A DNA stretch of 23,188 nt from an uncultured archaeon (GTDB lineage: Archaea; Iainarchaeota; Iainarchaeia; Iainarchaeales; CSSED10-239). Below are positions 138 to 12,375 of the stretch, in pieces. The translations under genes were made by a program, and so were the position numbers. Numbering within the stretch: the stretch's first letter is position 1; each line of letters starts with the position of its first letter. Location: assembly GCA_964496765.1 (NCBI GenBank), contig CAZCAP010000001.1:1-23188 (forward strand), read 5' to 3'. The notes under the pieces are model-generated. The model did not search any database and was not told where the DNA came from. It saw only the letters and a list, made by a program, of their open reading frames with translations.

Positions 138-2336
138 ATGGGAAGAAAAGAACAGGTTGCAGAACTTGCACAAACATTAATGGCAAACACAAAAAATATT
201 AGAAATATTGCAATTATTGCACATATTGATCACGGTAAATCTACTTTAACTGATAATCTAGTAGCTACTGCTGGATTAATTTCAAAAGATCTTGCAGGAG
301 ATCAAGTTTTCATGGATTCATATATCCTTGAACAGGAAAGAGGTATTACAATTAATGCTTCAAACGTATCAGTACCCTATGCTTTAGGTGATGAAAAATA
401 TTTAATTAATATTATAGATACTCCTGGTCACGTTGATTTCACAGGAGATGTTATTAGAGCAATGAGAGCTGTTGATGGAGCAGTCCTAGTTATTGATTCT
501 GTTGAAGGGGTTATGCCACAAACAGAAACTGTTCTAAGACAAGCATTAAAGGAAAGAGTAAGACCTGTTCTTTTTATTAACAAAGTTGATAGATTAATTA
601 CTGAAATGCATGTAACCCCAGAGGATATGCAAAAGAAATTCGTTAAGGTTGTAATGGATGTTAATAATTTAATATCAAGATATGCAGTAGATGAATTAAA
701 ACAAAAGTGGCAGGTTTCAATTAAAGATGGTTCAGTTTGTTTTGGTTCTGGTTATCATAACTGGGCAATGTCTGTTCCAGCAATGGCTAAATACAATCTG
801 AAGTTTGCAGATATTATAGATTATTGTGAAAAGGAACAACAAAAAGAATTATCAGATAAAATACCAATCTCTGATGTATTCCTAGAAATGGTTATTAATC
901 ATTTACCAAATCCTAAGACTGCTCAAGGATACAGAATTCCTGTTATTTGGAAAGGAGATTTAGATTCACCTGAAGGAAAAGCAATGCAAAATTGTGAAAT
1001 GGGAAACGAAAATGTTGCCATGATGGTAGTAGACGTTGTTCTTGATAAGCATGCAGGAGATATTGCATCAGGTAGAATATATGCTGGTTCAATTAAGAAA
1101 GGAATGGATATAAAAATACTAGGAACAGAAAGAGAAGGTAAGGTTCAACAGGTTGGAATATATCTAGGACCTGAAAGAGTTATATTAGATGAAGTTGAAG
1201 CAGGAAATATTGTTTGTGTAATTGGAATGAAAGAAATTTACACAGGGCAAACTCTTGCAAATAGAGAAATGGAACCATTTGAAGATTTCCTATCGGATGT
1301 TGAACCGGTTATGACTGTTTCCATTGAAGCTAAAAATTCAAAGGATCTTCCAAAACTAATTGATGTTATTCATAATATTACTAAAGAGGATCCAAACATA
1401 AGAGCTGAATTAAATCAAGAAACAGGAGAGCATTTAATTTCAGGAATGGGAGAGCTTCACTTAGAGATTACGCAATACAAGGTTGAGAAAGATAATAATA
1501 TCCCAATAACTGTTTCACCTCCAATTGTTGTTTACTATGAAACAATACAAAAAGATTCACCAGTTATTGAAGGAAAAACACCAAACAAGCATAATAAATT
1601 TAAAATACAGATACAACCAATTGAAGAAGAAATGCTTGAGAAGCTAAGAAAGTTAAAGCTTAATTGTAAGATTAGACAAAATAAAGATATGGAAATAATG
1701 AAGAAGCTTCAGGAGATTGGGTTTACTGGTGATGAATCAAAGAACATCTGGGCTGTATTCAATAATTCTGTTTTAATCAATAGAACAAAGGGTATACAGA
1801 ATTTAAATGAAACCAGAGAATTAATTATTGAAGCATTCCAGGACGCATTGAGAGAAGGTCCAGTTGCTAAGGAAAGAGTTTCTGGTATTCTTGTAAGCTT
1901 AAATGATGCTGTATTACACGAGGATGCTATACATAGAGGGCCTGCTCAGGTTCTTCCTGCAATAACAAGAGCTATCTATGCTGGTGTTCTTGCTAGTGAT
2001 TATACTCTTCTAGAGCCTAAACAACATTTGACTGTATCAGTTCCACAGGATTACATGGGTTCTGTTTCAAGAGTTCTTTCTGGTAGAAGAACACAGATTG
2101 AGGATATCAAGAGTGAAGGAGATCTTTCAATCATTATTGGTAAAATACCAGTTAAGTCAATGATTGGTTTTTCACAGGAAATGAGAGGAGAAACACAGGG
2201 AAGAGCTGTTTGGACTGCTGAATATTCTGGATATGAAAAACTTCCTAAATCCATTTTGAAGGATACAATCATGGAAATTAGAAAAAGAAAAGGATTAGAT
2301 CCAGAACCAAAGACCTGGGAATTCTTCCTAGATTAG
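138..2336 (+). CDS. fusA: Archaeal translation elongation factor 2 (aEF-2)
   Basis: 732-aa ORF with GTPase motifs AHIDHGKST (G1), DTPGH (G3) and NKVD (G4). The diphthamide-site His lies in HEDAIHRGPAQ. AGGTGA SD at 125-130, 7 nt before the ATG. Confidence 0.95.
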   Translation: MGRKEQVAELAQTLMANTKNIRNIAIIAHIDHGKSTLTDNLVATAGLISKDLAGDQVFMDSYILEQERGITINASNVSVPYALGDEKYLINIIDTPGHVDFTGDVIRAMRAVDGAVLVIDSVEGVMPQTETVLRQALKERVRPVLFINKVDRLITEMHVTPEDMQKKFVKVVMDVNNLISRYAVDELKQKWQVSIKDGSVCFGSGYHNWAMSVPAMAKYNLKFADIIDYCEKEQQKELSDKIPISDVFLEMVINHLPNPKTAQGYRIPVIWKGDLDSPEGKAMQNCEMGNENVAMMVVDVVLDKHAGDIASGRIYAGSIKKGMDIKILGTEREGKVQQVGIYLGPERVILDEVEAGNIVCVIGMKEIYTGQTLANREMEPFEDFLSDVEPVMTVSIEAKNSKDLPKLIDVIHNITKEDPNIRAELNQETGEHLISGMGELHLEITQYKVEKDNNIPITVSPPIVVYYETIQKDSPVIEGKTPNKHNKFKIQIQPIEEEMLEKLRKLKLNCKIRQNKDMEIMKKLQEIGFTGDESKNIWAVFNNSVLINRTKGIQNLNETRELIIEAFQDALREGPVAKERVSGILVSLNDAVLHEDAIHRGPAQVLPAITRAIYAGVLASDYTLLEPKQHLTVSVPQDYMGSVSRVLSGRRTQIEDIKSEGDLSIIIGKIPVKSMIGFSQEMRGETQGRAVWTAEYSGYEKLPKSILKDTIMEIRKRKGLDPEPKTWEFFLD

Positions 2337-3083: not shown

Positions 3084-3119
3084 ATGGTAAAGAAGAAAGC
3101 AAAAGCAAAGAAGAAATAA
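3084..3119 (+). CDS. Lysine-rich micro-ORF, 11 aa (MVKKKAKAKKK)
   Basis: ATG 3084, TAA 3117-3119. Same MVKKK start, GGGGGAG SD (8-nt spacer) and promoter design as 2758-2838. It is very short and could be a truncated paralogue or a regulatory uORF. Confidence 0.3.
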   Translation: MVKKKAKAKKK

Positions 3120-3240
3120 ATTTAATTAATTAAGTTTATTTCAGTTATTTATTTTTTTAATATTTTTTTTCTTTTTTTTATTTTTTTAATCTCCGTTAAT
3201 TACAATACCTTTTAAAACCTAATCTACTTTTATTATATCT

Positions 3241-4389
3241 ATGAAAAAGGATATAATTATACTTGGATCTAATTCTAGTTTGTCCATTGCTATTATTGAC
3301 TTTTTTAAAAAATATAAAAATAAATATAATATTGTAGGAATCACCTATGACTGGTCTTTGGATAATCTTGATCTTTTCCTAAAGCAAATAAAAGAAATTA
3401 ATCCAAAAATTATATATGTGGATAGGAAAGAAGATTTTGATTTGATTCAGGCAAAGGATATATCTGATAAAGTTTCTTTATTCCATGGGGAAGATTCATT
3501 TGTTAAATTTTTAAGATCAACAGAGATAGACATGGTTGTGTCCAATCTTAGAGGCAGCTCATCAATCAAGAAGATATTATCTTCAATCTATGAATATAAA
3601 GATATTACTTTACTTAATTCTTCTCCTATTCTCTATTCTGGACAAATTATTATTCAAGATGCAAAATCAAAAGGAGTTTCTTTGAATATTTGCACATATC
3701 CAATATATTCACTAACTCAATTTTTTAAATCAAGAAAAGTAGAAGATATTTATGCACTTCATTTTTTCACATCAAAACACAGTGAAGAAAACAAAATTGA
3801 AGAATTAGATCCTGATGATTACAAAACCCATTTTGAGTTTGTGAAAGAATTTAATTCAACAAATAAAATTAAAATGCTCTATGAATTTTATCTGACAAAT
3901 TATATGTATAACATACCATTAGCAAAAATTTCTTTTTATGAACAAAGCAAACCACTGATATCCATTGCTGTTCAATTTAAGGATGGAAGTAACCTACTTA
4001 ACACAACCAAGAAAGAAATAGAAAATATATTTAATTATTACTTTCTAGACTCTGATTTATTTCCCACAGTAAAGCTTCCTGTTTATGATACCCTAACCAT
4101 TTCTCTTAAAAGAATAGAGCCTAATAATTATAGCCTATTGAAAATGGGATTGGATGCAATCACAAAAGGAGGAGCAACTCCAATAATCTTCTATATAACC
4201 CTAGATAAGATTATAGAGATGATGTACAATAAGGTTTTAAAGAAAAAAACAGATATTCTTAAAATTGTTGAGGAAATAATTAATGATAATCGTCTCTATA
4301 ATAAAAAACTAGATTTAAGCCTAATTTGTGCTCTAGAAAAAAAAATAAGTGATAGATTAAATGAAAAGTATTTAATTAAAAAGAAATAA
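3241..4389 (+). CDS. DXR-family (1-deoxy-D-xylulose-5-phosphate reductoisomerase-like) protein with degenerate cofactor and catalytic motifs
   Basis: 382 aa, collinear by eye with E. coli Dxr. ILGSNSSLS aligns to ILGSTGSIG, LLNSSPIL to LANKESLV, LNICTYPIYSLTQFF to LLPVDSEHNAIFQSL, FKDGSNLL to YQDGSVLA, and YSLLKMGLDAITKGGATP to YPCLKLAMEAFEQGQAAT. A TATA-like TTTTAAAA at 3210-3217 with no SD suggests a leaderless transcript. Confidence 0.6.
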   Translation: MKKDIIILGSNSSLSIAIIDFFKKYKNKYNIVGITYDWSLDNLDLFLKQIKEINPKIIYVDRKEDFDLIQAKDISDKVSLFHGEDSFVKFLRSTEIDMVVSNLRGSSSIKKILSSIYEYKDITLLNSSPILYSGQIIIQDAKSKGVSLNICTYPIYSLTQFFKSRKVEDIYALHFFTSKHSEENKIEELDPDDYKTHFEFVKEFNSTNKIKMLYEFYLTNYMYNIPLAKISFYEQSKPLISIAVQFKDGSNLLNTTKKEIENIFNYYFLDSDLFPTVKLPVYDTLTISLKRIEPNNYSLLKMGLDAITKGGATPIIFYITLDKIIEMMYNKVLKKKTDILKIVEEIINDNRLYNKKLDLSLICALEKKISDRLNEKYLIKKK

Positions 4390-4391
4390 GT

Positions 4392-5177
4392 CTATAGTTC
4401 TTCTTCTTTAATCACAACAGATGCCCTACTCTTTTCTTTTGCTTGTTCAACTAGTTCTGGTTTTTGTTTAATGTGTTCAAGACCATAGGATGCTACAATG
4501 TGTCCAAATGAATAGGAATATTTCTCATCAAAGGTTTTTTTATTAAACTTAGTGCAATAATGGGAACCTCCTACTCCAATTGCTTCAACCCATCCCTTTT
4601 CTTTCTTAATTTCTTGCCTATTGTAATTAGAAATAACATTAAATAAACAGGTTAACATGAATCTAGCTACATCCCTATCAACCCATGCATCTTTATTTGA
4701 ACCAATCTCATAAAATATAGTTGATGTGGATAGAAAAGGACCATGATGAGTTGCTTCCTGTTTAATTTCATAGGGCTTAAGTGCTAATGGCTTATTACTT
4801 TTAAGCTCAAGTAATAGAGATCTTATTAGAATTGGATCAGTTTCTATGATTGTGTGATCAAGTCCACCAAGATCAGCTTTTCCCCAATTACCTATTGGAT
4901 GAACAGTCATACTTTTTGGTTTAATCTCCCCTAGAGTTGAATGCTTTGATAGAAAGATTATTTGATTGATAGCTAGCTCTGGTTCAATAATTTCTTCTTC
5001 CTTTGAAAAAATGTGTAAAGAAGTAATGATCTTAAGATATACTACATTTTTAGAATTTTCTTTGGTTACCTTAAATACATTAGAATTAATCTCTTCAATA
5101 TCATATTCAGTAAATAATATTTCCTTGAAGTTAAGAGAAGCAATGTCCTGATTTGAAATAATTAGTAAAAAATTCAT
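4392..5177 (-). CDS. dtdA: D-aminoacyl-tRNA deacylase, archaeal DTD2 type
   Basis: 261 aa. N-terminus LLIISNQDIASLN, EATHHGP motif and GVGGSHY motif are typical of the tRNA_deacylase (DTD2) family. AAAGGATGA SD and a TATA-like box lie upstream on the minus strand. Confidence 0.75.
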   Translation of the reverse strand: MNFLLIISNQDIASLNFKEILFTEYDIEEINSNVFKVTKENSKNVVYLKIITSLHIFSKEEEIIEPELAINQIIFLSKHSTLGEIKPKSMTVHPIGNWGKADLGGLDHTIIETDPILIRSLLLELKSNKPLALKPYEIKQEATHHGPFLSTSTIFYEIGSNKDAWVDRDVARFMLTCLFNVISNYNRQEIKKEKGWVEAIGVGGSHYCTKFNKKTFDEKYSYSFGHIVASYGLEHIKQKPELVEQAKEKSRASVVIKEEEL

Positions 5178-5302: not shown

Positions 5303-5656
5303 ATGATATATATAGCTAACAAAATGTTTCCATTAAGAATTGATAGAAAATCAAGAGCACCAGTGGAACTAGAAATTTCTTTAAAAAATCAAAACTCATT
5401 AAATAAGTTAATTTCCTATGAAATTGTTTTTCCAGAAGGCATATCTGTAAACACAAAGAATAAGAAAGGAAGTGAGATATTTAAGCTTGGAGAAATGGTT
5501 CCTGATGAAGTAAGGACATTCAAGTATAAATTATTGCCAACTAGCTATTTAGGAGAAGGAACAGTAGAATTGATTGTAAGAGCCTATGAGCACATTGGAT
5601 CCTATGATAATCTAGAACAAACAACAGAAAAAAGAGTTCAAATTAGGGTTGTATAA
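5303..5656 (+). CDS. Hypothetical protein (117 aa), first gene of the operon
   Basis: ORF with a strong GGGGGAG SD 6 nt upstream and non-repetitive composition. No family recognised. Confidence 0.65.
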   Translation: MIYIANKMFPLRIDRKSRAPVELEISLKNQNSLNKLISYEIVFPEGISVNTKNKKGSEIFKLGEMVPDEVRTFKYKLLPTSYLGEGTVELIVRAYEHIGSYDNLEQTTEKRVQIRVV

Positions 5657-5671
5657 ATTATAGCTTGTGAG

Positions 5672-6238
5672 ATGAAACTAATGCCACAGAGACCACTTAA
5701 GCTTCCTGAAAAGCTAGCCAAAAAAGGCAAAACCTTAGAGGATATAAGAAAAATGGTTTTTGAGAAGAAAAAAAGCACGTCCTACGTTATTAAACAAACA
5801 AAGGCAGATGCCTTTAAAGAACATGCCTATTTTCAATCACTGGTTAATAAAATAAAAAGAATCAATCAAAGATTAAAAGAAAAAACCACAAATTCATTTA
5901 CAAAAAGAATGCTAAGCTTTGAATTAATAAGAACGAAAATGGACCTTAATTTAATGGAATTTAAAGTTACTACAGAGTTTAATCTTAAAAATATTGAGAG
6001 AATGCCAAATACTAGTAGCGTTGTTTTAAAGAAGATAAGTGTATTAAAAAATATGGTGAATAAAATACTAAGAGACATAGATTTTAGTTTGGAAGCACAA
6101 ACAATATCCATTGAAAATGCAAAAAAGTTCTCAAGCAAGTTAAGTTCTGAATCCCAAAGAATAGATACAATTAATGATTTAGAAAAATTTCTTAACAAAA
6201 AGCTTATTGAGCTTCAAAACTATAAATTATTAAACTAA
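5672..6238 (+). CDS. Hypothetical Lys-rich, probably helical protein (188 aa)
   Basis: ORF 15 nt after the previous stop and 2 nt before tmk. Starts M-K-L-MPQRP. Weak resemblance to the ORF at 8180-8788 (MP.. start; KxxxSKL[ST]SE about 30 aa from the C-terminus). Confidence 0.6.
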   Translation: MKLMPQRPLKLPEKLAKKGKTLEDIRKMVFEKKKSTSYVIKQTKADAFKEHAYFQSLVNKIKRINQRLKEKTTNSFTKRMLSFELIRTKMDLNLMEFKVTTEFNLKNIERMPNTSSVVLKKISVLKNMVNKILRDIDFSLEAQTISIENAKKFSSKLSSESQRIDTINDLEKFLNKKLIELQNYKLLN

Positions 6239-6240
6239 AG

Positions 6241-6936
6241 ATGAATAAAATGATTAAAGGAAAACTAATTGTAATTGATGGAACTGATGGTTCCGGTAAG
6301 GCAACACAGGTTAAACTTCTTAAGGATAAACTAATAAATGAGGGGCATTTAGTTGAGACTATTGATTTTCCACAGTATAGTTTTAAATCTGCAGGTCCAA
6401 CTGAAGAATATCTTTCAGGGAAATATGGTGCTCCTGATGAGGTTGGAGCCTATAGAGCATCTATTTTTTATGCTGTTGATAGGTATGATGCTTCTTTTAG
6501 GATGAAAGAATGGTTAGAAGCAGGGAAGATAGTTATTTGTGATAGATATGTTTCTGCAAACATGGGACATCAGGCAGGAAAGATAGAAGATCTAAAAGAA
6601 AGAGATAAATATCTTGATTGGTTATTTGATTTAGAATTTAATATATTTAAGATTCCAAAACCAGATATAAATATATTTTTATATTTGGATCCGGTTATTG
6701 CAAGAAGACTTGCACAGGAGAACACAAGCAATAAGTTTACAAATGAAATAAAAAAGAATGATATTCATGAGAAGGATCCTGAGCACATGAAGAAGGCAAG
6801 TGAATCATTTAAGTACGTCGCTGATAAATACAAATGGATAACAATAGATTGTTCAGACAAACAAGAACAAGCAGGAATAAGGACAAGAGAAGATATATCA
6901 GAAGAAATATATAATAAGGTAAAGGGGTTAATATAG
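6241..6936 (+). CDS. tmk: Thymidylate kinase
   Basis: P-loop [13 protein letters not shown], the DRY motif (CDRYVSAN), 231 aa. Confidence 0.9.
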
Positions 6937-8162
6937 TGAACTCATCAAAGGAAATATTTGAACTTATTAAAAAAGAAGAAGAAAGACAACAAAATACCAT
7001 TGAAATGATTGCTTCGGAGAATATTACTTCAAAAGCAGTTAGAAAGGCTTGTGGTTCTGTTCTTACAAATAAATATGCTGAAGGATACCCTACAAAAAGA
7101 TATTATTCTGGTTGTGAAAACGTAGACAAGATTGAACAAATTGGAATTGATACATGCAAAAAACTATTTAAATCAAATTTTGCAAATATCCAAGCTCATT
7201 CTGGATCAAATGCAAATGAAATTGCTTATTTTTCTTGTTTAGAACCAAAAGATAAGATATTAGGTATGTCTCTAGATGCTGGTGGGCATTTAACTCATGG
7301 TTATAAGATTAATTTTTCAGGTAAAATTTACGAATCTAATTTTTATGGAGTAGGAACTGATGGTTATCTTGATTATGATGTGATTAGAAAGCAAGCTATT
7401 GAAATTAAACCCAAATTAATTATTGCAGGAGCATCAGCATATCCTAGAAAAATTGATTTTTCTGAGTTTAAAAAAATCGCTGATGAATCAGGTGCGTTAT
7501 TAATGGTTGATATGGCTCATATTGCGGGTCTTGTTGCAACAAATCTTCATCAATCTCCAATAACCCATGCAGATATTGTTACATCAACCACACATAAGAC
7601 ACTTAGAGGTCCAAGAGGTGGATTTATTCTTACAAATACAGAAGAAAGAAGTAAAAAAGTTGATAAAGCTTGTTTTCCTGGATTTCAAGGTGGACCACTG
7701 GAACACATAATTGCAGGAAAAGCAATTTGTTTTAGAGAAGCATTAAAACCAAGTTTTAAAAAATATCAAAAACAAGTTCTGTTAAATTCCAAAGTCTTAG
7801 CAGATGAACTTCTGTCCTATGGTTTTAATCTAGTGACAGGTGGAACAGATAATCATCTTCTTTTAGTTGATTTAAGACCCAAAGGAGTTACTGGTAAGGA
7901 AGCAGAAGCACTTCTTGAGAAGTGTGGAATTTCAGTAAACAAGAATGCAATTCCAAATGATCCACAACCACCAATGATTGCTTCAGGTATAAGAATAGGA
8001 ACCCCAGCAATAACAACAAGAGGAGCAAAGGAAGAAGATATAAAGATAATTGCAAAATATATTAATGATATACTTACTAATAAAGATGATGATGCGCTTC
8101 ATCAAAAGATAAAGCTAGAAATTATAGAATTATTAAAAAATTTTCCAATAAATAAAATTTAA
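6936..8162 (+). CDS. glyA: Serine hydroxymethyltransferase
   Basis: IEMIASEN and the PLP-lysine motif [14 protein letters not shown], 408 aa. The GTG start overlaps the tmk stop by 1 nt (TAGTG). Confidence 0.95.
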
Positions 8163-8179
8163 AAAAAAAGGTGGAAACT

Positions 8180-8788
8180 ATGCCTGGAAAAATAAAAAGC
8201 CCAATTTTAATAATGACCAGAAAGAAACTAGAAAGAACAAAAACAAATGCAATAAAGGAACATCAAAAAAGATTAAAGGAAATTAAAGAATCTCAAACAT
8301 ATCAAAATAAAAAAGCAAATGTGAATGAATCTAAAAAGATTGTTGATTTTACTATGTTAAGACGTGATCATAGTAAATTAAATGCATCTTTGAAGAAAGA
8401 GCCTAAAGGTTCATTACGATATTCTCAATTATTAAATAGTAAAAATATTGTAGAAAGTGCACTAAATTTATATAACCTAAATATAAAATTTAAGCATTAT
8501 AAAACAGGATATATTCAAGAATATCATTCAGAAATTGAAAATTTATGCAGTGCGAAGTTTTCCATTTTTTTATCGAATGTAACAACCTATCAAGAACGCA
8601 CGTCTTTTGCTGAGAGTAATAAATTCGTTAAAAAAACACTGCTTGAATTTAATAATTTTGAAAAAACACTTAAGTCTAAATTAACTAGTGAGGATTGGTC
8701 TGAAAATCAATTAAAAGCATTAAAATTAGTTAGTGGCTTTATAAGTGCTAAAAACCAAGAAATTTTGAGTTTAATTAAAAAAAATTAA
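8180..8788 (+). CDS. Hypothetical Lys-rich protein (202 aa from ATG 8180)
   Basis: The ORF track starts at GTG 8171. ATG 8180 is preferred because AGGTGG at 8169-8174 sits 5 nt upstream. No family recognised. Confidence 0.55.
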   Translation: MPGKIKSPILIMTRKKLERTKTNAIKEHQKRLKEIKESQTYQNKKANVNESKKIVDFTMLRRDHSKLNASLKKEPKGSLRYSQLLNSKNIVESALNLYNLNIKFKHYKTGYIQEYHSEIENLCSAKFSIFLSNVTTYQERTSFAESNKFVKKTLLEFNNFEKTLKSKLTSEDWSENQLKALKLVSGFISAKNQEILSLIKKN

Positions 8789-8802
8789 AGAAGGATGATT
8801 AT

Positions 8803-9219
8803 ATGAAAAAAATATATTTTGCAGGATCAATAACTGGTGGAAGGGATGATGCTCCAATCTATGCAAAATTAATCGAATATCTTAAAACAAAAGGTAATGT
8901 ACTAACTGAACATCTAGGAAATAGTACTCTTTTATCTACTGGAGAAAAATTAACAAATGAAGAAATTTATATAAGAGACGTCGATTGGATAAAGGAAGCA
9001 GATATAGTTATTGCTGAAGTAACAAAACCATCTCTTGGAGTTGGTTATGAACTTGGATTTGCAGAAAAATTAAATATTCCAATAATTTGTTTGTATAGAG
9101 AAGATGAAACAAACAAAGATAAGAGATTATCTGCAATGATTGATGGTAATAAATACAACACTATCATTAGATATAAGGATATTAATGATATTCTATTTAA
9201 ATTAAATAAATTATTATAA
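8803..9219 (+). CDS. 2'-deoxynucleoside 5'-phosphate N-hydrolase (DNPH1/Rcl-like, nucleoside 2-deoxyribosyltransferase superfamily)
   Basis: 138 aa. YFAGSITGGRDD aligns to YFCGSIRGGRED, VLTEH is shared, VIAEVTKPSLGVGYELG aligns to VVAEVTQPSLGVGYELG, and LSAMI is shared. This is a close motif-for-motif match to mammalian Rcl/DNPH1. Confidence 0.8.
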   Translation: MKKIYFAGSITGGRDDAPIYAKLIEYLKTKGNVLTEHLGNSTLLSTGEKLTNEEIYIRDVDWIKEADIVIAEVTKPSLGVGYELGFAEKLNIPIICLYREDETNKDKRLSAMIDGNKYNTIIRYKDINDILFKLNKLL

Positions 9220-9233
9220 AAAGGGGAAAAACA

Positions 9234-10100
9234 ATGAAAGCATATCTAGATATTATACAGCAAATTTTGGATAAAGGAGAACTTAAACACAATAGAACCG
9301 GTGTTGATACTCTTGCTATTGCAGGAGCAATGTTTGAGCATAATATGCAAGAAGGATTTCCTGTTCTTACTACTAAGAAAGTTCCCTTTAGACTTGTAGC
9401 ATCTGAATTGGAGTTTTTCATAAAAGGAATTACAGATAAAAAATGGTTACAGGAAAGAGATAATCATATTTGGGATGAATGGTGCTGTCCTGATAACGTG
9501 CCCTATGGACATGATGAAGTTACAAAACAAAAAATGCTTGAAGAAAGAGAGCTTGGTCCTATCTATGGTTGGCAATGGAGAAATTTTGGAGCAAAATATC
9601 AAGCTTTTGATAAAGCACCATTAGGAGAAGGTGTTGATCAACTAAAAAATGTAGTTAATAAACTTAAATCCGATCCAACAGACAGAAGAATGATTGTTTC
9701 AGCATGGAATCCCCATGATATTAAGCATATGGCTCTACCCGCATGCCACTATGGATTTCAAGTAACAGTTATTAATGATAAATTGAATTTATTATGGAAT
9801 CAAAGATCCGTTGATTCTGCTCTTGGTTTACCATTTAATATTGCAAGCTATGGATTATTACTCCATCTTCTTGCAAAGGAAGCTGGACTTAAGGAAGGTA
9901 AGTTAATTGGTTTTCTTGGAGATACACATGTTTATGTTAATCACATTGATGGACTTAAAGAACAACTTGCAAGAGAAACATATAAACTACCAACAATTGA
10001 AACAAGTGATTTTAAATCCATATTTGATTGGAAATATACAGACAGTAAATTAATTGATTATAAAGCACAACCAACTATTAAGTTTGAGATTGCTGTTTAA
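9234..10100 (+). CDS. thyA: Thymidylate synthase (ThyA, folate-dependent)
   Basis: Motifs NRTG, IWDEW, DRRMIVSAWNP, catalytic Cys in LPACH, QRSVD, LGLPFNIASY (Asn, so dUMP-specific) and GDTHVYVNH. The C-terminus is FEIAV. Confidence 0.95.
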   Translation: MKAYLDIIQQILDKGELKHNRTGVDTLAIAGAMFEHNMQEGFPVLTTKKVPFRLVASELEFFIKGITDKKWLQERDNHIWDEWCCPDNVPYGHDEVTKQKMLEERELGPIYGWQWRNFGAKYQAFDKAPLGEGVDQLKNVVNKLKSDPTDRRMIVSAWNPHDIKHMALPACHYGFQVTVINDKLNLLWNQRSVDSALGLPFNIASYGLLLHLLAKEAGLKEGKLIGFLGDTHVYVNHIDGLKEQLARETYKLPTIETSDFKSIFDWKYTDSKLIDYKAQPTIKFEIAV

Positions 10101-10108
10101 ACAAAGGT

Positions 10109-10585
10109 GTGATTTTGAGAGAGATAATAATTATTGTTGCAGTTGCAAAAAATAATGTAATTGGTAAGGATAATAGGATACCTTGGTACATATCTGATGA
10201 TTTTAAGCATTTTAAGGAATTAACCTTAGGTCATCCAATAGTTATGGGAAAAAATACATATCTGTCTTTACCAAAAAGACCGCTTCCAGAGAGAGAAAAT
10301 ATTGTTTTAACTTTTATAGATGATCCTTTTAATGAATCAGGAATTACAATTAAGCATTCGCTTAAGGATGCACTTGAGTACACAGAAAACAAAGATGTTT
10401 ATGTAATCGGAGGAGCAAGTGTGTACAAGCAAGCAATGGATGTTGCAACAAAGTTAGAGATAACAAGTATAGATAAGGAATATGAAGGAGATACTTTCTT
10501 TCCAGAAATAAATTTAGAAATTTGGAAACTAATAAAAGAGGATAAGAGAGAAGGATATTCATTTCAAACATATATAAAAAAATAA
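10109..10585 (+). CDS. folA: Dihydrofolate reductase
   Basis: VIGKDNRIPW, the acidic residue in SDDFKHFK, VMGKNTY, VIGGASVY and EGDTFFP. The start is ambiguous: GTG 10109 or TTG 10115, with AGGTG at 10105-10109. Confidence 0.9.
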   Translation: MILREIIIIVAVAKNNVIGKDNRIPWYISDDFKHFKELTLGHPIVMGKNTYLSLPKRPLPERENIVLTFIDDPFNESGITIKHSLKDALEYTENKDVYVIGGASVYKQAMDVATKLEITSIDKEYEGDTFFPEINLEIWKLIKEDKREGYSFQTYIKK

Positions 10586-10598
10586 ATGGTGGGGATTT

Positions 10599-11693
10599 AT
10601 GATTATTGGATTAACTAGTTTTTTATCTGCTGGAAAAGGCAGTGTTTGTGAATTTTTAAAAATTAAAGGATATCTAGTTTATTCTTGTTCTGATATAATT
10701 AGAGAAGAATGTAATAGTAGAGGTATTGAACTTACAAGAGAAAATTTACAAAATGTTGGTAACGAGCTTAGAACTAAGTTTGGTCCAAATATACTTGCAA
10801 TTAGATTATCTGAAAAAATTAATAAAGATATTACTAAAAATTATGTTGTAGATTCTATTATAACACCTGCTGAAATTGAAGAATTAAGAAAATTACCTAA
10901 TTTTGCTCTTGTGTTTCTGGATGCCGATTCTAAAATAAGATATGAAAGAGCAAAGATCAGATTAAGAGAGAAAGAAAATGTAAATAGTTTTGATGAGTTT
11001 ATGCTCTCAGAAAAAAGAGAACTTGAAAGTAAGGATCCAAATTCTCAACAATTGTTAAGATGTAAAGAACTTTCAGATTATATGTTGAATAATAATGGAA
11101 CAGTAGATGAGCTTCAAGCTCAAGTTGATGAGCTTTTAGTAAAACTTCAAGTTAAATTCAAGAAAAAAATGAATTGGGACGAATATTTTATAAATGTTGC
11201 AAAAGATATTTCTAAAAAATCAACGTGTATGTCTATGTATGTTGGTGCAGTAATAACCAAAAATAATACTATTTTAAGTACTGGGTATTCTGGAGCACCA
11301 AGAGGTACAAAAGATTGCTTTGAATGGGGTTATTGTTTTAGAAGAAAAAATAATATTAAATCAGGAACTAAGTTTGAATTGTGTGCTTCGGTTCATGCTG
11401 AACAGAATGCAATAATTAATGCTGCAAGGCAAGGAACAAGTATAGTTGATGGAGTTCTTTATCTTTATGGAGAAATTGCATATCAAGCACAAAATAAAAT
11501 GACGGATATATTTCCTTGTTTTATTTGCAAAAAAATTATTATTAATGCAGGTATTGTAAAAGTGGTTTGTTCAAAAGCAGATGGAACATTTATTACTTTT
11601 GAGGTTAAAGATTGGATTAATGATTGGAAGGAACATAACTTATTAGAAGATACGGTTGGATATGGAACAAACTATAATCAAAGCATTAAGTGA
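10599..11693 (+). CDS. Fusion protein: N-terminal P-loop-kinase-like domain plus C-terminal dCMP deaminase (ComEB-type)
   Basis: Residues 1 to about 185 resemble the small nucleotide / dephospho-CoA-kinase-like fold but carry a deviant Walker A (GLTSFLSAGKGS versus GxxxxGK[ST]). Residues from about 190 to 364 show WDEYF..STC, VGAVI, STGYSGAPRG, HAEQNAI and PCFICKKIIINAGI, the zinc deaminase motifs. Confidence 0.85.
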   Translation: MIIGLTSFLSAGKGSVCEFLKIKGYLVYSCSDIIREECNSRGIELTRENLQNVGNELRTKFGPNILAIRLSEKINKDITKNYVVDSIITPAEIEELRKLPNFALVFLDADSKIRYERAKIRLREKENVNSFDEFMLSEKRELESKDPNSQQLLRCKELSDYMLNNNGTVDELQAQVDELLVKLQVKFKKKMNWDEYFINVAKDISKKSTCMSMYVGAVITKNNTILSTGYSGAPRGTKDCFEWGYCFRRKNNIKSGTKFELCASVHAEQNAIINAARQGTSIVDGVLYLYGEIAYQAQNKMTDIFPCFICKKIIINAGIVKVVCSKADGTFITFEVKDWINDWKEHNLLEDTVGYGTNYNQSIK

Positions 11694-12375
11694 TCTTAAG
11701 CAGATTCTTTCTTCTCTTAGGAAGAAAGGAGACCCCACTCATGCAAGGAACGAAGAAAAGTATCTTAAAACAAATTTTAAATGCTATGGAGTTTATGGAA
11801 CTGAGCTCCATCTTTCTTTAAATGAGTTTTGTAAATCACATAAAGACATTTCTAAAGCGGACTTGTTATATTTGTTGGACAGTTTGTGGACCTCTAAGTA
11901 CCATACAGAAAAAACATTTGCAATTAAGCTTGTTTCCAAGTATATTTCTCTTTTTGGACCCAAAGATATACCCTATTTCAAAAAATGGTTAAAAGAATCA
12001 GATGGATGGTGTCACACAGATTATATTTGTGGTTTAGTTGTTGGTGAACTTGTATACAAGCACCCTACAATTAAAAAAACAATTAATTGCTGGAGAGATG
12101 ATAAAGTTCTGTGGGTAAGAAGAGCATCCCTAATATCCTATATAGTCTCCATAAGGCATACAGATAGGGACATTAAAGATGTATTCAACAATTCAATTTA
12201 TCTTTCTGGAGAAAAAGATTTTTTTATTAGAAAAGCAATTGGTTGGATATTACGTGAAGCATCTAAAAAATATCCAAAAGAAGTATTAGGTTTTGTTTCT
12301 AAATATGAAAATAAACTCTCAAATCTTTCAAAAAAAGAAGCAATAAGAAATATTAAATTAAAGAAAACTTTATAA
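11662..12375 (+). CDS. DNA alkylation repair protein (AlkC/AlkD-like HEAT-repeat family)
   Basis: KYLKTNFKCYGV, WVRRASLIS and FFIRKAIGWILREASKKYP are typical of the DNA_alkylation family. ATG 11662 is preferred over TTG 11656. It overlaps the deaminase gene by 32 nt in another frame. Confidence 0.7.
   Translation: MEQTIIKALSDLKQILSSLRKKGDPTHARNEEKYLKTNFKCYGVYGTELHLSLNEFCKSHKDISKADLLYLLDSLWTSKYHTEKTFAIKLVSKYISLFGPKDIPYFKKWLKESDGWCHTDYICGLVVGELVYKHPTIKKTINCWRDDKVLWVRRASLISYIVSIRHTDRDIKDVFNNSIYLSGEKDFFIRKAIGWILREASKKYPKEVLGFVSKYENKLSNLSKKEAIRNIKLKKTL
11863..11881 (+). repeat. 19-nt element TTGTTATATTTGTTGGACA, copy A (inside the AlkD-like CDS)
   Basis: Identical 19/19 to the reverse complement of 21803-21821. 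Confidence 0.8.

Follow-up and report, generated by a model that had tools for sequence, protein, structure and literature searches.

Why should an archaeon that lacks the other genes for isoprenoid precursor synthesis keep a full-length relative of the reductoisomerase that acts on 1-deoxy-D-xylulose 5-phosphate (DXR, IspC), an enzyme of the methylerythritol phosphate (MEP) pathway? The question is raised by a stretch of 23,188 nucleotides from an uncultured archaeon of the Iainarchaeota (contig CAZCAP010000001.1 of assembly GCA_964496765.1, positions 1 to 23,188), which was analyzed at its full length and is called "the window" here. It has a G+C content of about 29% and contains archaeal-type genes, namely those for EF-2 and DTD2 and a thymidylate-cycle operon. 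The gene in question, DXRL (DXR-like), is located at positions 3241 to 4389 on the plus strand, starts with ATG, and encodes a protein of 382 amino acids with a pI of 8.8, a full-length DXR/IspC homologue without the active site. DXRL is almost certainly not a DXR and almost certainly retained for a function. It is, moreover, fairly likely that the protein as it exists today is both a relic of a lost MEP gene cluster and a pseudoenzyme that serves as a binding or scaffold protein without catalysis.

The earlier note on this DNA had described the protein as collinear with bacterial DXR from the N to the C terminus, and the NCBIfam models, the sequence matches in the PDB, and a profile-profile alignment all agree with this. 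The NCBIfam Dxr equivalogs span DXRL end to end, from residues 1 to 3 up to residues 363 to 372, but the scores were 71 bits for TIGR00243 with a cut-off of 315.7 and 84.4 bits for NF009114 with a cut-off of 461, so that DXRL falls outside the equivalog. All significant PDB sequence matches were DXRs, with 6mh4 as the best one (7.8e-11). DXRL and its nearest relatives form a clade of their own, and when 23 members of this clade were aligned as a profile with 25 canonical DXRs by hhalign, the probability of homology was 99.96% with an E value of 5.5e-39 over 369 columns. The three Pfam domains of DXR gave a graded result. The N-terminal domain PF02670 clearly matched residues 5 to 131 (2.1e-13, 51.6 bits, gathering cut-off 21.7) and was found in all 23 clade members at an E value of 0.01 or below. 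The C-terminal domain PF13288 (DXPR_C) was a weak match (E value 0.014, 16.1 bits, cut-off 27), which reached the same E value limit in 13 of the 23. The central catalytic domain PF08436, responsible for metal and substrate binding, matched neither DXRL nor any of the 23 members; the same model gave 8.3e-39 on a canonical DXR from the Iainarchaeota. Evaluation of the PF02670 match needs to consider that a six-frame search of Methanocaldococcus jannaschii, used as a control without the MEP pathway, also yielded a match above the gathering cut-off, either as a cross-hit within the Rossmann clan or due to an unnoticed domain similar to the DXR N terminus. PF02670 alone is, therefore, no proof of DXR ancestry.

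The predicted structure leads to the same family. An AlphaFold2 model built with 19 homologues had a pLDDT of 89.5 and a pTM of 0.89, and the 50 best Foldseek matches of this model in the PDB were all DXRs, with TM scores between 0.78 and 0.84 over about 390 columns. According to the model, DXRL keeps the three-domain fold of DXR, composed of a Rossmann-like N-terminal domain, a central alpha/beta domain, and a C-terminal helical bundle, and its central sheet of four strands is predicted with high confidence. Canonical DXRs of known structure (PDB 6mh4, 1r0l, 3a06) resemble DXRL in length, three-domain fold, and whole-length homology, but the sequence identity is only about 16 to 24%. Scaffold residues common to DXRL and canonical DXR are G9, D97, L113, K120, G134, F246, and G249.

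The residues needed for catalysis were compared in a census of 32 clade members and 103 canonical DXRs, using a 135-sequence MAFFT alignment, with the roles of metal ligands, phosphate pocket, and lid in Escherichia coli DXR numbering taken from PMC9782300. The motif pairs proposed in the earlier note were read from three alignments, HMMER pairwise, MAFFT, and profile-profile, and each of the three pairs was recovered in all of them: GSTGSIG with GSNSSLS, LANKE with LLNSS, and PxDSEHxA (PIDSEHSA) with ICTYPIYS. Catalytic residues that might have been conserved at shifted positions were found in none of the three alignments, which excludes this alternative. In the dinucleotide loop (GSNSSLS, residues 9 to 15, positions 3265 to 3285), the first glycine was kept in 31 of the 32 members and the third in 25, with a serine at the third position in the window, but the second, middle glycine was lost in all of them and replaced by Asn, Thr, Ser, or Arg; the threonine of this loop was changed to Asn, Asp, or Gln. 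At the LANKE site (LLNSS, residues 124 to 128, positions 3610 to 3624), Lys125 was kept in no member and Glu126 in 2, and an asparagine was present in 22.

The metal site is affected in a similar way. At residues 150 to 157 (ICTYPIYS, positions 3688 to 3711), which correspond to the segment with the E. coli metal ligands Asp150 and Glu152, Asp150 was replaced in all 32 members, by Ser or Thr in 31 and by Cys in 1. Glu152 was also kept in none (Pro, Gln, or others instead), and the serine of the DSEH motif was a tyrosine in 23. The position of the third metal ligand, Glu231, is still acidic in 25 of the 32, but the other two ligands are lost. The lid loop HPxWxMG and the adjoining phosphate and metal segment DSATxxNKGxE survive as a remnant at residues 197 to 215 (positions 3829 to 3885). 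In all 32 members, the lid loop is shorter by two residues due to deletion of the Met-Gly pair, with His changed to Tyr or Phe and Trp to Phe or Tyr, so that the lid residues His209, Trp212, and Met214 are lost. The phosphate pocket retains Ser186 in 8, Ser222 in 25, Asn227 in 2, and Lys228 in none of the members. Finally, the HPQSxIH motif is replaced by QSKPLIS (residues 235 to 241, positions 3943 to 3963), with His257 changed to Gln in 28 members and the second histidine of the motif changed to Ser or Asn in all 32.

Judged by these residues, DXR chemistry appears to be effectively excluded for DXRL. The protein should no longer be able to bind the catalytic metal or the phosphate of the substrate 1-deoxy-D-xylulose 5-phosphate (DXP), and very probably it does not bind NADPH. 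Six features that define a DXR are absent: the PF08436 domain, an equivalog-level score, the dinucleotide loop, the metal triad, the phosphate pocket with its lid, and co-occurrence with the MEP pathway.

A search of 1.84 billion representative proteins returned 10 clade members at E values of 1e-30 or below, and about 13 representatives, fragments included, form the clade. Below it, the same search gave ordinary DXRs at 18 to 26% identity, and the two groups are discrete. The phylum was surveyed by a six-frame search of 215 species genomes. The window belongs to family f1 (genera g1 to g5), and of the 21 further genomes of this family, 19 contained the degenerate type, with 30 to 78% identity, which makes 20 of 22 with the genome of the window. 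It was present in none of the surveyed genomes outside this family. The EF-2 gene upstream of DXRL gave a partial match or no match in the two exceptional genomes, indicating that the locus was not assembled there. The degenerate clade is, thus, family-wide, and its losses are clade-wide. No genome of the survey contained a canonical DXR together with DXRL, so that paralogy, with a live DXR beside a dead copy, was rejected. A 193-amino-acid match to the DXR N terminus in another genome (G157) was considered as a second relic and rejected, being a canonical DXR cut by the end of a contig.

All DXRL open reading frames (ORFs) that were extracted or translated, from 16 genomes of the family, were intact and encoded about 370 to 385 amino acids. 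Apparent internal stops in two of them (G043 and G024) were dismissed as the natural stop codons of intact ORFs. The strength of selection was estimated from one species pair that was not saturated at synonymous sites (dS 0.36). For this pair, dN/dS was 0.133 for DXRL, 0.138 for the adjacent DTD2 gene, 0.083 for the neighboring p117 gene, and 0.049 for the C-terminal part of EF-2; a canonical DXR in a pair from another genus gave 0.129. DXRL is under purifying selection as strong as that on real enzymes, and conservation in 28 or more of the 32 members was seen at 49 of its positions. On the sequence evidence, the protein would qualify as a pseudoenzyme by descent from an enzyme family, loss of the catalytic residues, and purifying selection across species.

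The pathway around DXRL is missing. In the genome of the window (738 kb, 26 contigs, 86% complete), the search for further MEP genes proposed in the earlier note found no Dxs, IspD, IspG, or IspH; HMG-CoA reductase (HMGR), GGGP synthase (GGGPS), and a UbiA prenyltransferase were likewise not found in this genome. IspF, IspG, and AcnX, a marker of the archaeal mevalonate (MVA) route, were each found in 0 of the 22 genomes of the family, which include one of a single contig with 94% completeness. The organisms of this family apparently do not produce isoprenoid precursors, which is what would be expected of DPANN symbionts that scavenge lipids, and DXRL is a pathway orphan. A single polyprenyl-synthase-like match of 18 bits in the genome of the window comes from a 310-amino-acid ORF (G000:C5; L007 1405-2337, minus strand) with a DDxxD-like motif, MIDDYIDLEDD. 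This ORF may encode a divergent protein of the terpenoid-synthase fold in a genome without a route to isopentenyl diphosphate.

In the earlier note, a DXR homologue had been regarded as unexpected in an archaeon, which does not hold for this phylum. The MEP marker IspG was present in 32 of the 215 genomes and the MVA route, scored above the AcnX cut-off, in 79, and the two were largely mutually exclusive. Both pathways alternate between sister genera in at least three families (f4, f14, and f30), and on an EF-2 tree, the MEP pathway appears in at least five separate lineages with MVA sisters. The order also gave weak DXR matches outside the family of the window (E values of 1e-7 to 1e-20). These were canonical, and in each of the eight loci opened, no motif was damaged. 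The canonical DXR loci that were opened were all situated inside MEP clusters, with Dxs, IspD, an IspE-type kinase, IspF, and IspH confirmed by Pfam, and genomes with a canonical DXR contained IspF or IspG, most of them both. The canonical DXRs from the order of the window (loci L020 to L031) carry every catalytic motif, have matches to each of the three Pfam domains with E values of about 1e-39 to 1e-43, and share 20 to 25% identity with DXRL, and their neighbors are Dxs, IspD, IspE, IspF, and IspH; in genus g10, the DXR gene heads a cluster that ends convergently on DTD2. MEP clusters in DPANN archaea have been published for a clade of Woesearchaeota (PMC8204110), and the searchable literature contained nothing specific on such clusters in the Iainarchaeota. 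Since canonical DXRs are present in MEP clusters of the same lineage, the source of the DXRL gene is explained for the most part.

The position of DXRL in the genome connects it with these clusters. The gene for DTD2, the archaeal D-aminoacyl-tRNA deacylase, is located at positions 4392 to 5177 on the minus strand, where it converges with DXRL, 2 nt away from the DXRL stop codon, and the orthologous genes contain PF04414. EF-2 (positions 138 to 2336, plus strand) is the upstream neighbor conserved throughout the family. In family f1, the genes follow each other as EF-2 (plus), DXRL (plus), DTD2 (minus), and p117 (plus), and EF-2 and DXRL are separated by a spacer that reaches about 0.9 kb. In five genomes of g10 (L022 and L028 to L031), the order at the DTD2 site is PPDK (minus), DXR, p145, IspD, IspF, and Dxs (all plus), followed by DTD2 and p158 (both minus). 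Removal of p145, IspD, IspF, and Dxs from this arrangement leaves exactly the order seen around DXRL, and a PPDK gene is located not more than 5 kb upstream in both. In g11 (L041), a genus of the same family as g10, and in g8 (L042) of another family, an archaeal MVA cluster converges on DTD2 instead. This cluster encodes an IDI2-type FMN enzyme, an IP kinase, the large and small subunits of AcnX, UbiD, UbiX, a GHMP kinase (MVK), and DUF35/thiolase. The presence of either a MEP or a MVA cluster at the DTD2 site looks as if one isoprenoid pathway had displaced the other in situ. The p145 gene itself (L022 5516-5953, with equivalents in L028 to L031), which is conserved between DXR and IspD in the MEP cluster of g10, encodes a protein of 145 amino acids without a family match.

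The canonical DXRs inside MEP clusters, the adjacency of such a cluster to DTD2 in g10, and the MVA cluster at the same site in other genera are the reasons to read DXRL as the probable relic of a lost MEP cluster. The ancestor of the family would have possessed a bacterial-type MEP cluster at an isoprenoid-precursor locus beside DTD2. When the lineage turned into a lipid-scavenging symbiont, IspD, IspF, and Dxs would have been deleted, and the remaining MEP genes would have disappeared from other parts of the genome. Only DXR would have survived, passed through a burst of change with a stem of about 1.75 substitutions per site, and then been fixed by purifying selection. In the DXR tree, the DXRL clade is monophyletic with a support of 100, and the stem that leads to it is very long, with 0.97 + 0.78 substitutions per site.

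Several observations weigh against such an origin. In the free maximum-likelihood (ML) tree, the long branch of DXRL is attached close to where all DXRs begin to diverge, a common tendency of long branches, and not to the DXRs of the Iainarchaeota. This placement was not taken as a separate origin, because a tree that forces DXRL and the Iainarchaeota DXRs into one clade was at least as good: its log-likelihood (lnL) was better by 15, and it was not rejected in the approximately unbiased (AU) test (p-AU 0.64). Sequence phylogeny by itself is, nevertheless, no proof of a relic origin within the phylum. Moreover, the single-gene EF-2 tree puts the family of the window deep in the order, beside the pathway-less family f2 and far from g10. 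This would mean that, for the relic, a MEP cluster must have been present early at the DTD2 site, on the stem of the family, or a parallel in situ replacement must have taken place. It is also possible that DXRL and DTD2 are adjacent by chance.

If the old active site is gone and selection persists, the question is where this selection acts. Conservation was rank-normalized and compared between the DXRL clade and the canonical DXRs. Constraint was lost at the glycine loop (residues 10 to 18), the DSEH segment (154 to 162), the segment containing the SGG, lid, and NKG.E motifs (172 to 216), and the HPQS strand (235 to 243). It was gained in a clade-specific conserved block of residues 109 to 144 (positions 3565 to 3672; SSVKKILSSIYEYKDITLLNxSPxLYSGxIIxxEAKSK), which reached conservation ranks of 0.70 to 0.80 in the clade compared to 0.38 to 0.71 in canonical DXR. 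This block comprises a helix-strand-helix element at the end of the N-terminal domain, with K120, D121, P129, L131, and G134 invariant in the 23-member alignment. A second region with gained constraint, at residues 343 to 369 (positions 4267 to 4347; ...LYxKxPDLSxIxAxE), belongs to the C-terminal helical bundle and had a rank difference of +0.25 to +0.37, and constraint was also gained at residues 307 to 315. The C-terminal bundle of canonical DXR makes no dimer (subunit) contacts (PMC9782300). The composition of the protein shifted as well. The median pI of DXRL is 8.8 (net charge +6) compared to 6.3 to 6.6 (net charge -2 to -4) in canonical DXR, Tyr and Phe together amount to 13.2% instead of 5 to 6.5%, and Gly makes up 2.9% instead of 6 to 7%. 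An AT bias as the sole cause of this shift was rejected in part, because neighboring genes of the same AT-rich genome contain 5 to 9.5% Tyr and Phe.

These results support what the earlier note had suspected, a DXR fold stripped of its NADPH-binding and catalytic residues and turned into a pseudoenzyme or repurposed scaffold, by the clade-wide losses, the purifying selection, and the absence of the MEP genes. DXRL would be a folded module, probably a dimer, that serves for binding or as a scaffold and does not catalyze a reaction, with its functional surfaces moved from the old cleft to the block at residues 109 to 144 and to the C-terminal bundle. The interface of the DXR dimer consists of one strand of the central sheet and a linker region. 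Because the strands of this sheet are predicted confidently in DXRL and one of them is used by the DXR dimer, a DXRL dimer is plausible on the basis of the model. As to the new function, for which the earlier note had considered either binding or regulation or else a different chemistry, a role of the binding or regulatory type is favored here, and a different chemistry is possible but less supported.

Such a different chemistry is the main rival. DXRL might be a neofunctionalized enzyme with a metal-free, rebuilt cleft, or with a different nucleotide in its Rossmann domain, and catalyze a reaction unrelated to isoprenoids. A point against a non-catalytic role is that the old cleft carries new, fairly conserved residues, Ser/Thr152, Tyr153, Ser206, Arg/Lys211, Asp/Glu215, and Gln235, which may indicate a remodeled ligand pocket or a new chemistry. 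Leaving Tyr153 aside and with Ser/Asn241 added, these are new semi-conserved polar residues at positions of the former active site, the purifying selection has the strength found for enzymes, and the first and third glycines of the dinucleotide loop are mostly kept. The cleft segments 154 to 162, 172 to 216, and 235 to 243, however, have ranks of only 0.25 to 0.54, at or below the clade average and far below canonical DXR, and the strongest constraint is located outside the cleft. The replacement of the second glycine of the loop in every member, a central domain without an invariant polar residue of the catalytic type, and the lack of a functionally linked neighbor gene also argue against a new enzyme, which is, on this evidence, rather unlikely.

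A more specific form of the non-catalytic role would be that of a factor binding a macromolecule, RNA or tRNA, DNA, or protein, by new basic and aromatic surfaces. The pI and the Tyr and Phe content above those of canonical DXR, conserved Lys, Glu, and Asp residues in the block at 109 to 144, the gained constraint on the solvent-exposed C-terminal bundle, and a gene fixed between EF-2 and DTD2, both part of the translation machinery, throughout the family would all fit. Nevertheless, a gene order shared within one family may simply have been inherited, the shift in composition is suggestive but unspecific, and DXRL has no known nucleic-acid-binding motif. This sub-case is quite improbable as it stands, and equally doubtful is its more detailed version, in which the conserved block and the C-terminal bundle dock RNA, tRNA, or a protein partner that comes from the neighboring translation machinery or acts at the interface with the host. 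If true, DXRL would be the first pseudo-DXR, and genome-reduced DPANN symbionts would have recycled the last gene of a discarded bacterial pathway that had been acquired horizontally.

A functionless, slowly decaying pseudogene or an annotation artifact might be considered, because DXRL has lost every catalytic motif and the genome has no such pathway, but decay is effectively refuted by the intact ORFs in 16 genomes across about 30 to 78% identity, the dN/dS of 0.13, and the confident fold prediction, which leaves hardly any room for it. A working DXR with unconventional residues, in spite of the full-length collinearity and the mostly acidic third metal-ligand position, can be dismissed for practical purposes, since two of three metal ligands, the phosphate set except for one serine, the lid loop, and the middle glycine of the NADPH loop are missing, and since its own genome has neither Dxs to provide the substrate nor IspD, IspF, IspG, and IspH to use the product, with IspF and IspG absent from all 22 family genomes.

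DXRL has to be distinguished from other proteins with a related name or a related fate. Sangari et al. in 2010 reportedly described DRL ("DXR-II") of Brucella and other bacteria as an active enzyme for the DXR reaction without detectable similarity to DXR-I. DRL and DXRL share only the name, as "DXR-like" proteins where a canonical DXR is missing: DRL is active and belongs to a different family, but DXRL is a DXR-I by descent and lacks the catalytic equipment. An assignment of DXRL to DRL/DXR-II was rejected because Pfam, NCBIfam, the PDB matches, and the profile-profile alignment clearly relate it to DXR-I. By descent, DXRL is a member of the DXR-I family; by function, it is not. With pseudoenzymes in general, it shares homology to an enzyme, ablated catalytic residues, and purifying selection, but it differs from pseudoenzyme paralogues in being the sole copy, left after the loss of a whole pathway, with no live enzyme beside it. 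No described pseudo-DXR was found in the searchable literature. New here are the count across the whole family, the comparison of dN/dS values, the shift of constraint to other sites, and the series of MVA, MEP, and relic states anchored at DTD2.

For metabolic reconstructions of DPANN archaea, the label DXR on such proteins would wrongly credit these organisms with a step of the MEP pathway, and source annotations that name them DXR are unfit for pathway inference. As a clean, family-wide case of a dead enzyme under enzyme-like constraint, which has been relocated away from the old active site, DXRL is also a good target for learning what pseudoenzymes are selected for. Within one order, the locus beside DTD2 displays three states: a MVA cluster of archaeal type, a MEP cluster of bacterial type, and a lone dead DXR. 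The series would be a compact natural case in which to study how horizontal transfer displaces a pathway and how symbionts then lose it by reduction.

Expression of DXRL may be independent of its neighbors. A TATA-box-like element, TTTTAAAA, was read at positions 3210 to 3217 on the plus strand, which is about 27 nt upstream of the start codon, and this start codon has no Shine-Dalgarno sequence. Taken together, both suggest a promoter of its own and a leaderless transcript. DXRL has no operon partner and, hence, no functional hint from this side, PADLOC gave no match to a defense system, and no tRNA or Rfam family was found across the window, including the 0.9-kb spacer upstream of DXRL. This spacer between EF-2 and DXRL contains two Lys-rich micro-ORFs, at positions 2758 to 2838 (26 codons) and 3084 to 3119 (11 codons), and both are preceded by the Shine-Dalgarno sequence GGGGGAG. 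Genus g4 encodes a protein of about 78 amino acids with AKKAPAKK repeats, similar to a histone H1 tail, at this location (L011/L012, about 264 to 501), and the DNA is nearly identical in the two g4 species compared.

Other genes around the locus showed features of their own. The EF-2 of the window's family is the plain 732-amino-acid form. In many other genomes of the phylum (such as G017:C23, G015:C4, and G166:C4), the EF-2 match begins at about residue 30 to 36 of frames of about 913 to 1316 amino acids, as if an intein or some other large insert were located close to the GTPase motifs of the N terminus. The p117 gene (window positions 5303 to 5656; orthologues in L039 to L043) encodes 117 to 119 amino acids without a Pfam match and is found close to DTD2 in families f1 to f4. 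It is adjacent and divergent to DTD2 in f1 and f2 and is present irrespective of the isoprenoid cluster. From position 5303 to 12375, the window contains a same-strand run of genes for the thymidylate cycle, encoding Tmk, SHMT, a nucleoside 2-deoxyribosyltransferase/DNPH1-like protein, ThyA, DHFR, and a fusion of a kinase with a dCMP deaminase. This run closes with the ORF at positions 11656 to 12375 and is syntenic across the family.

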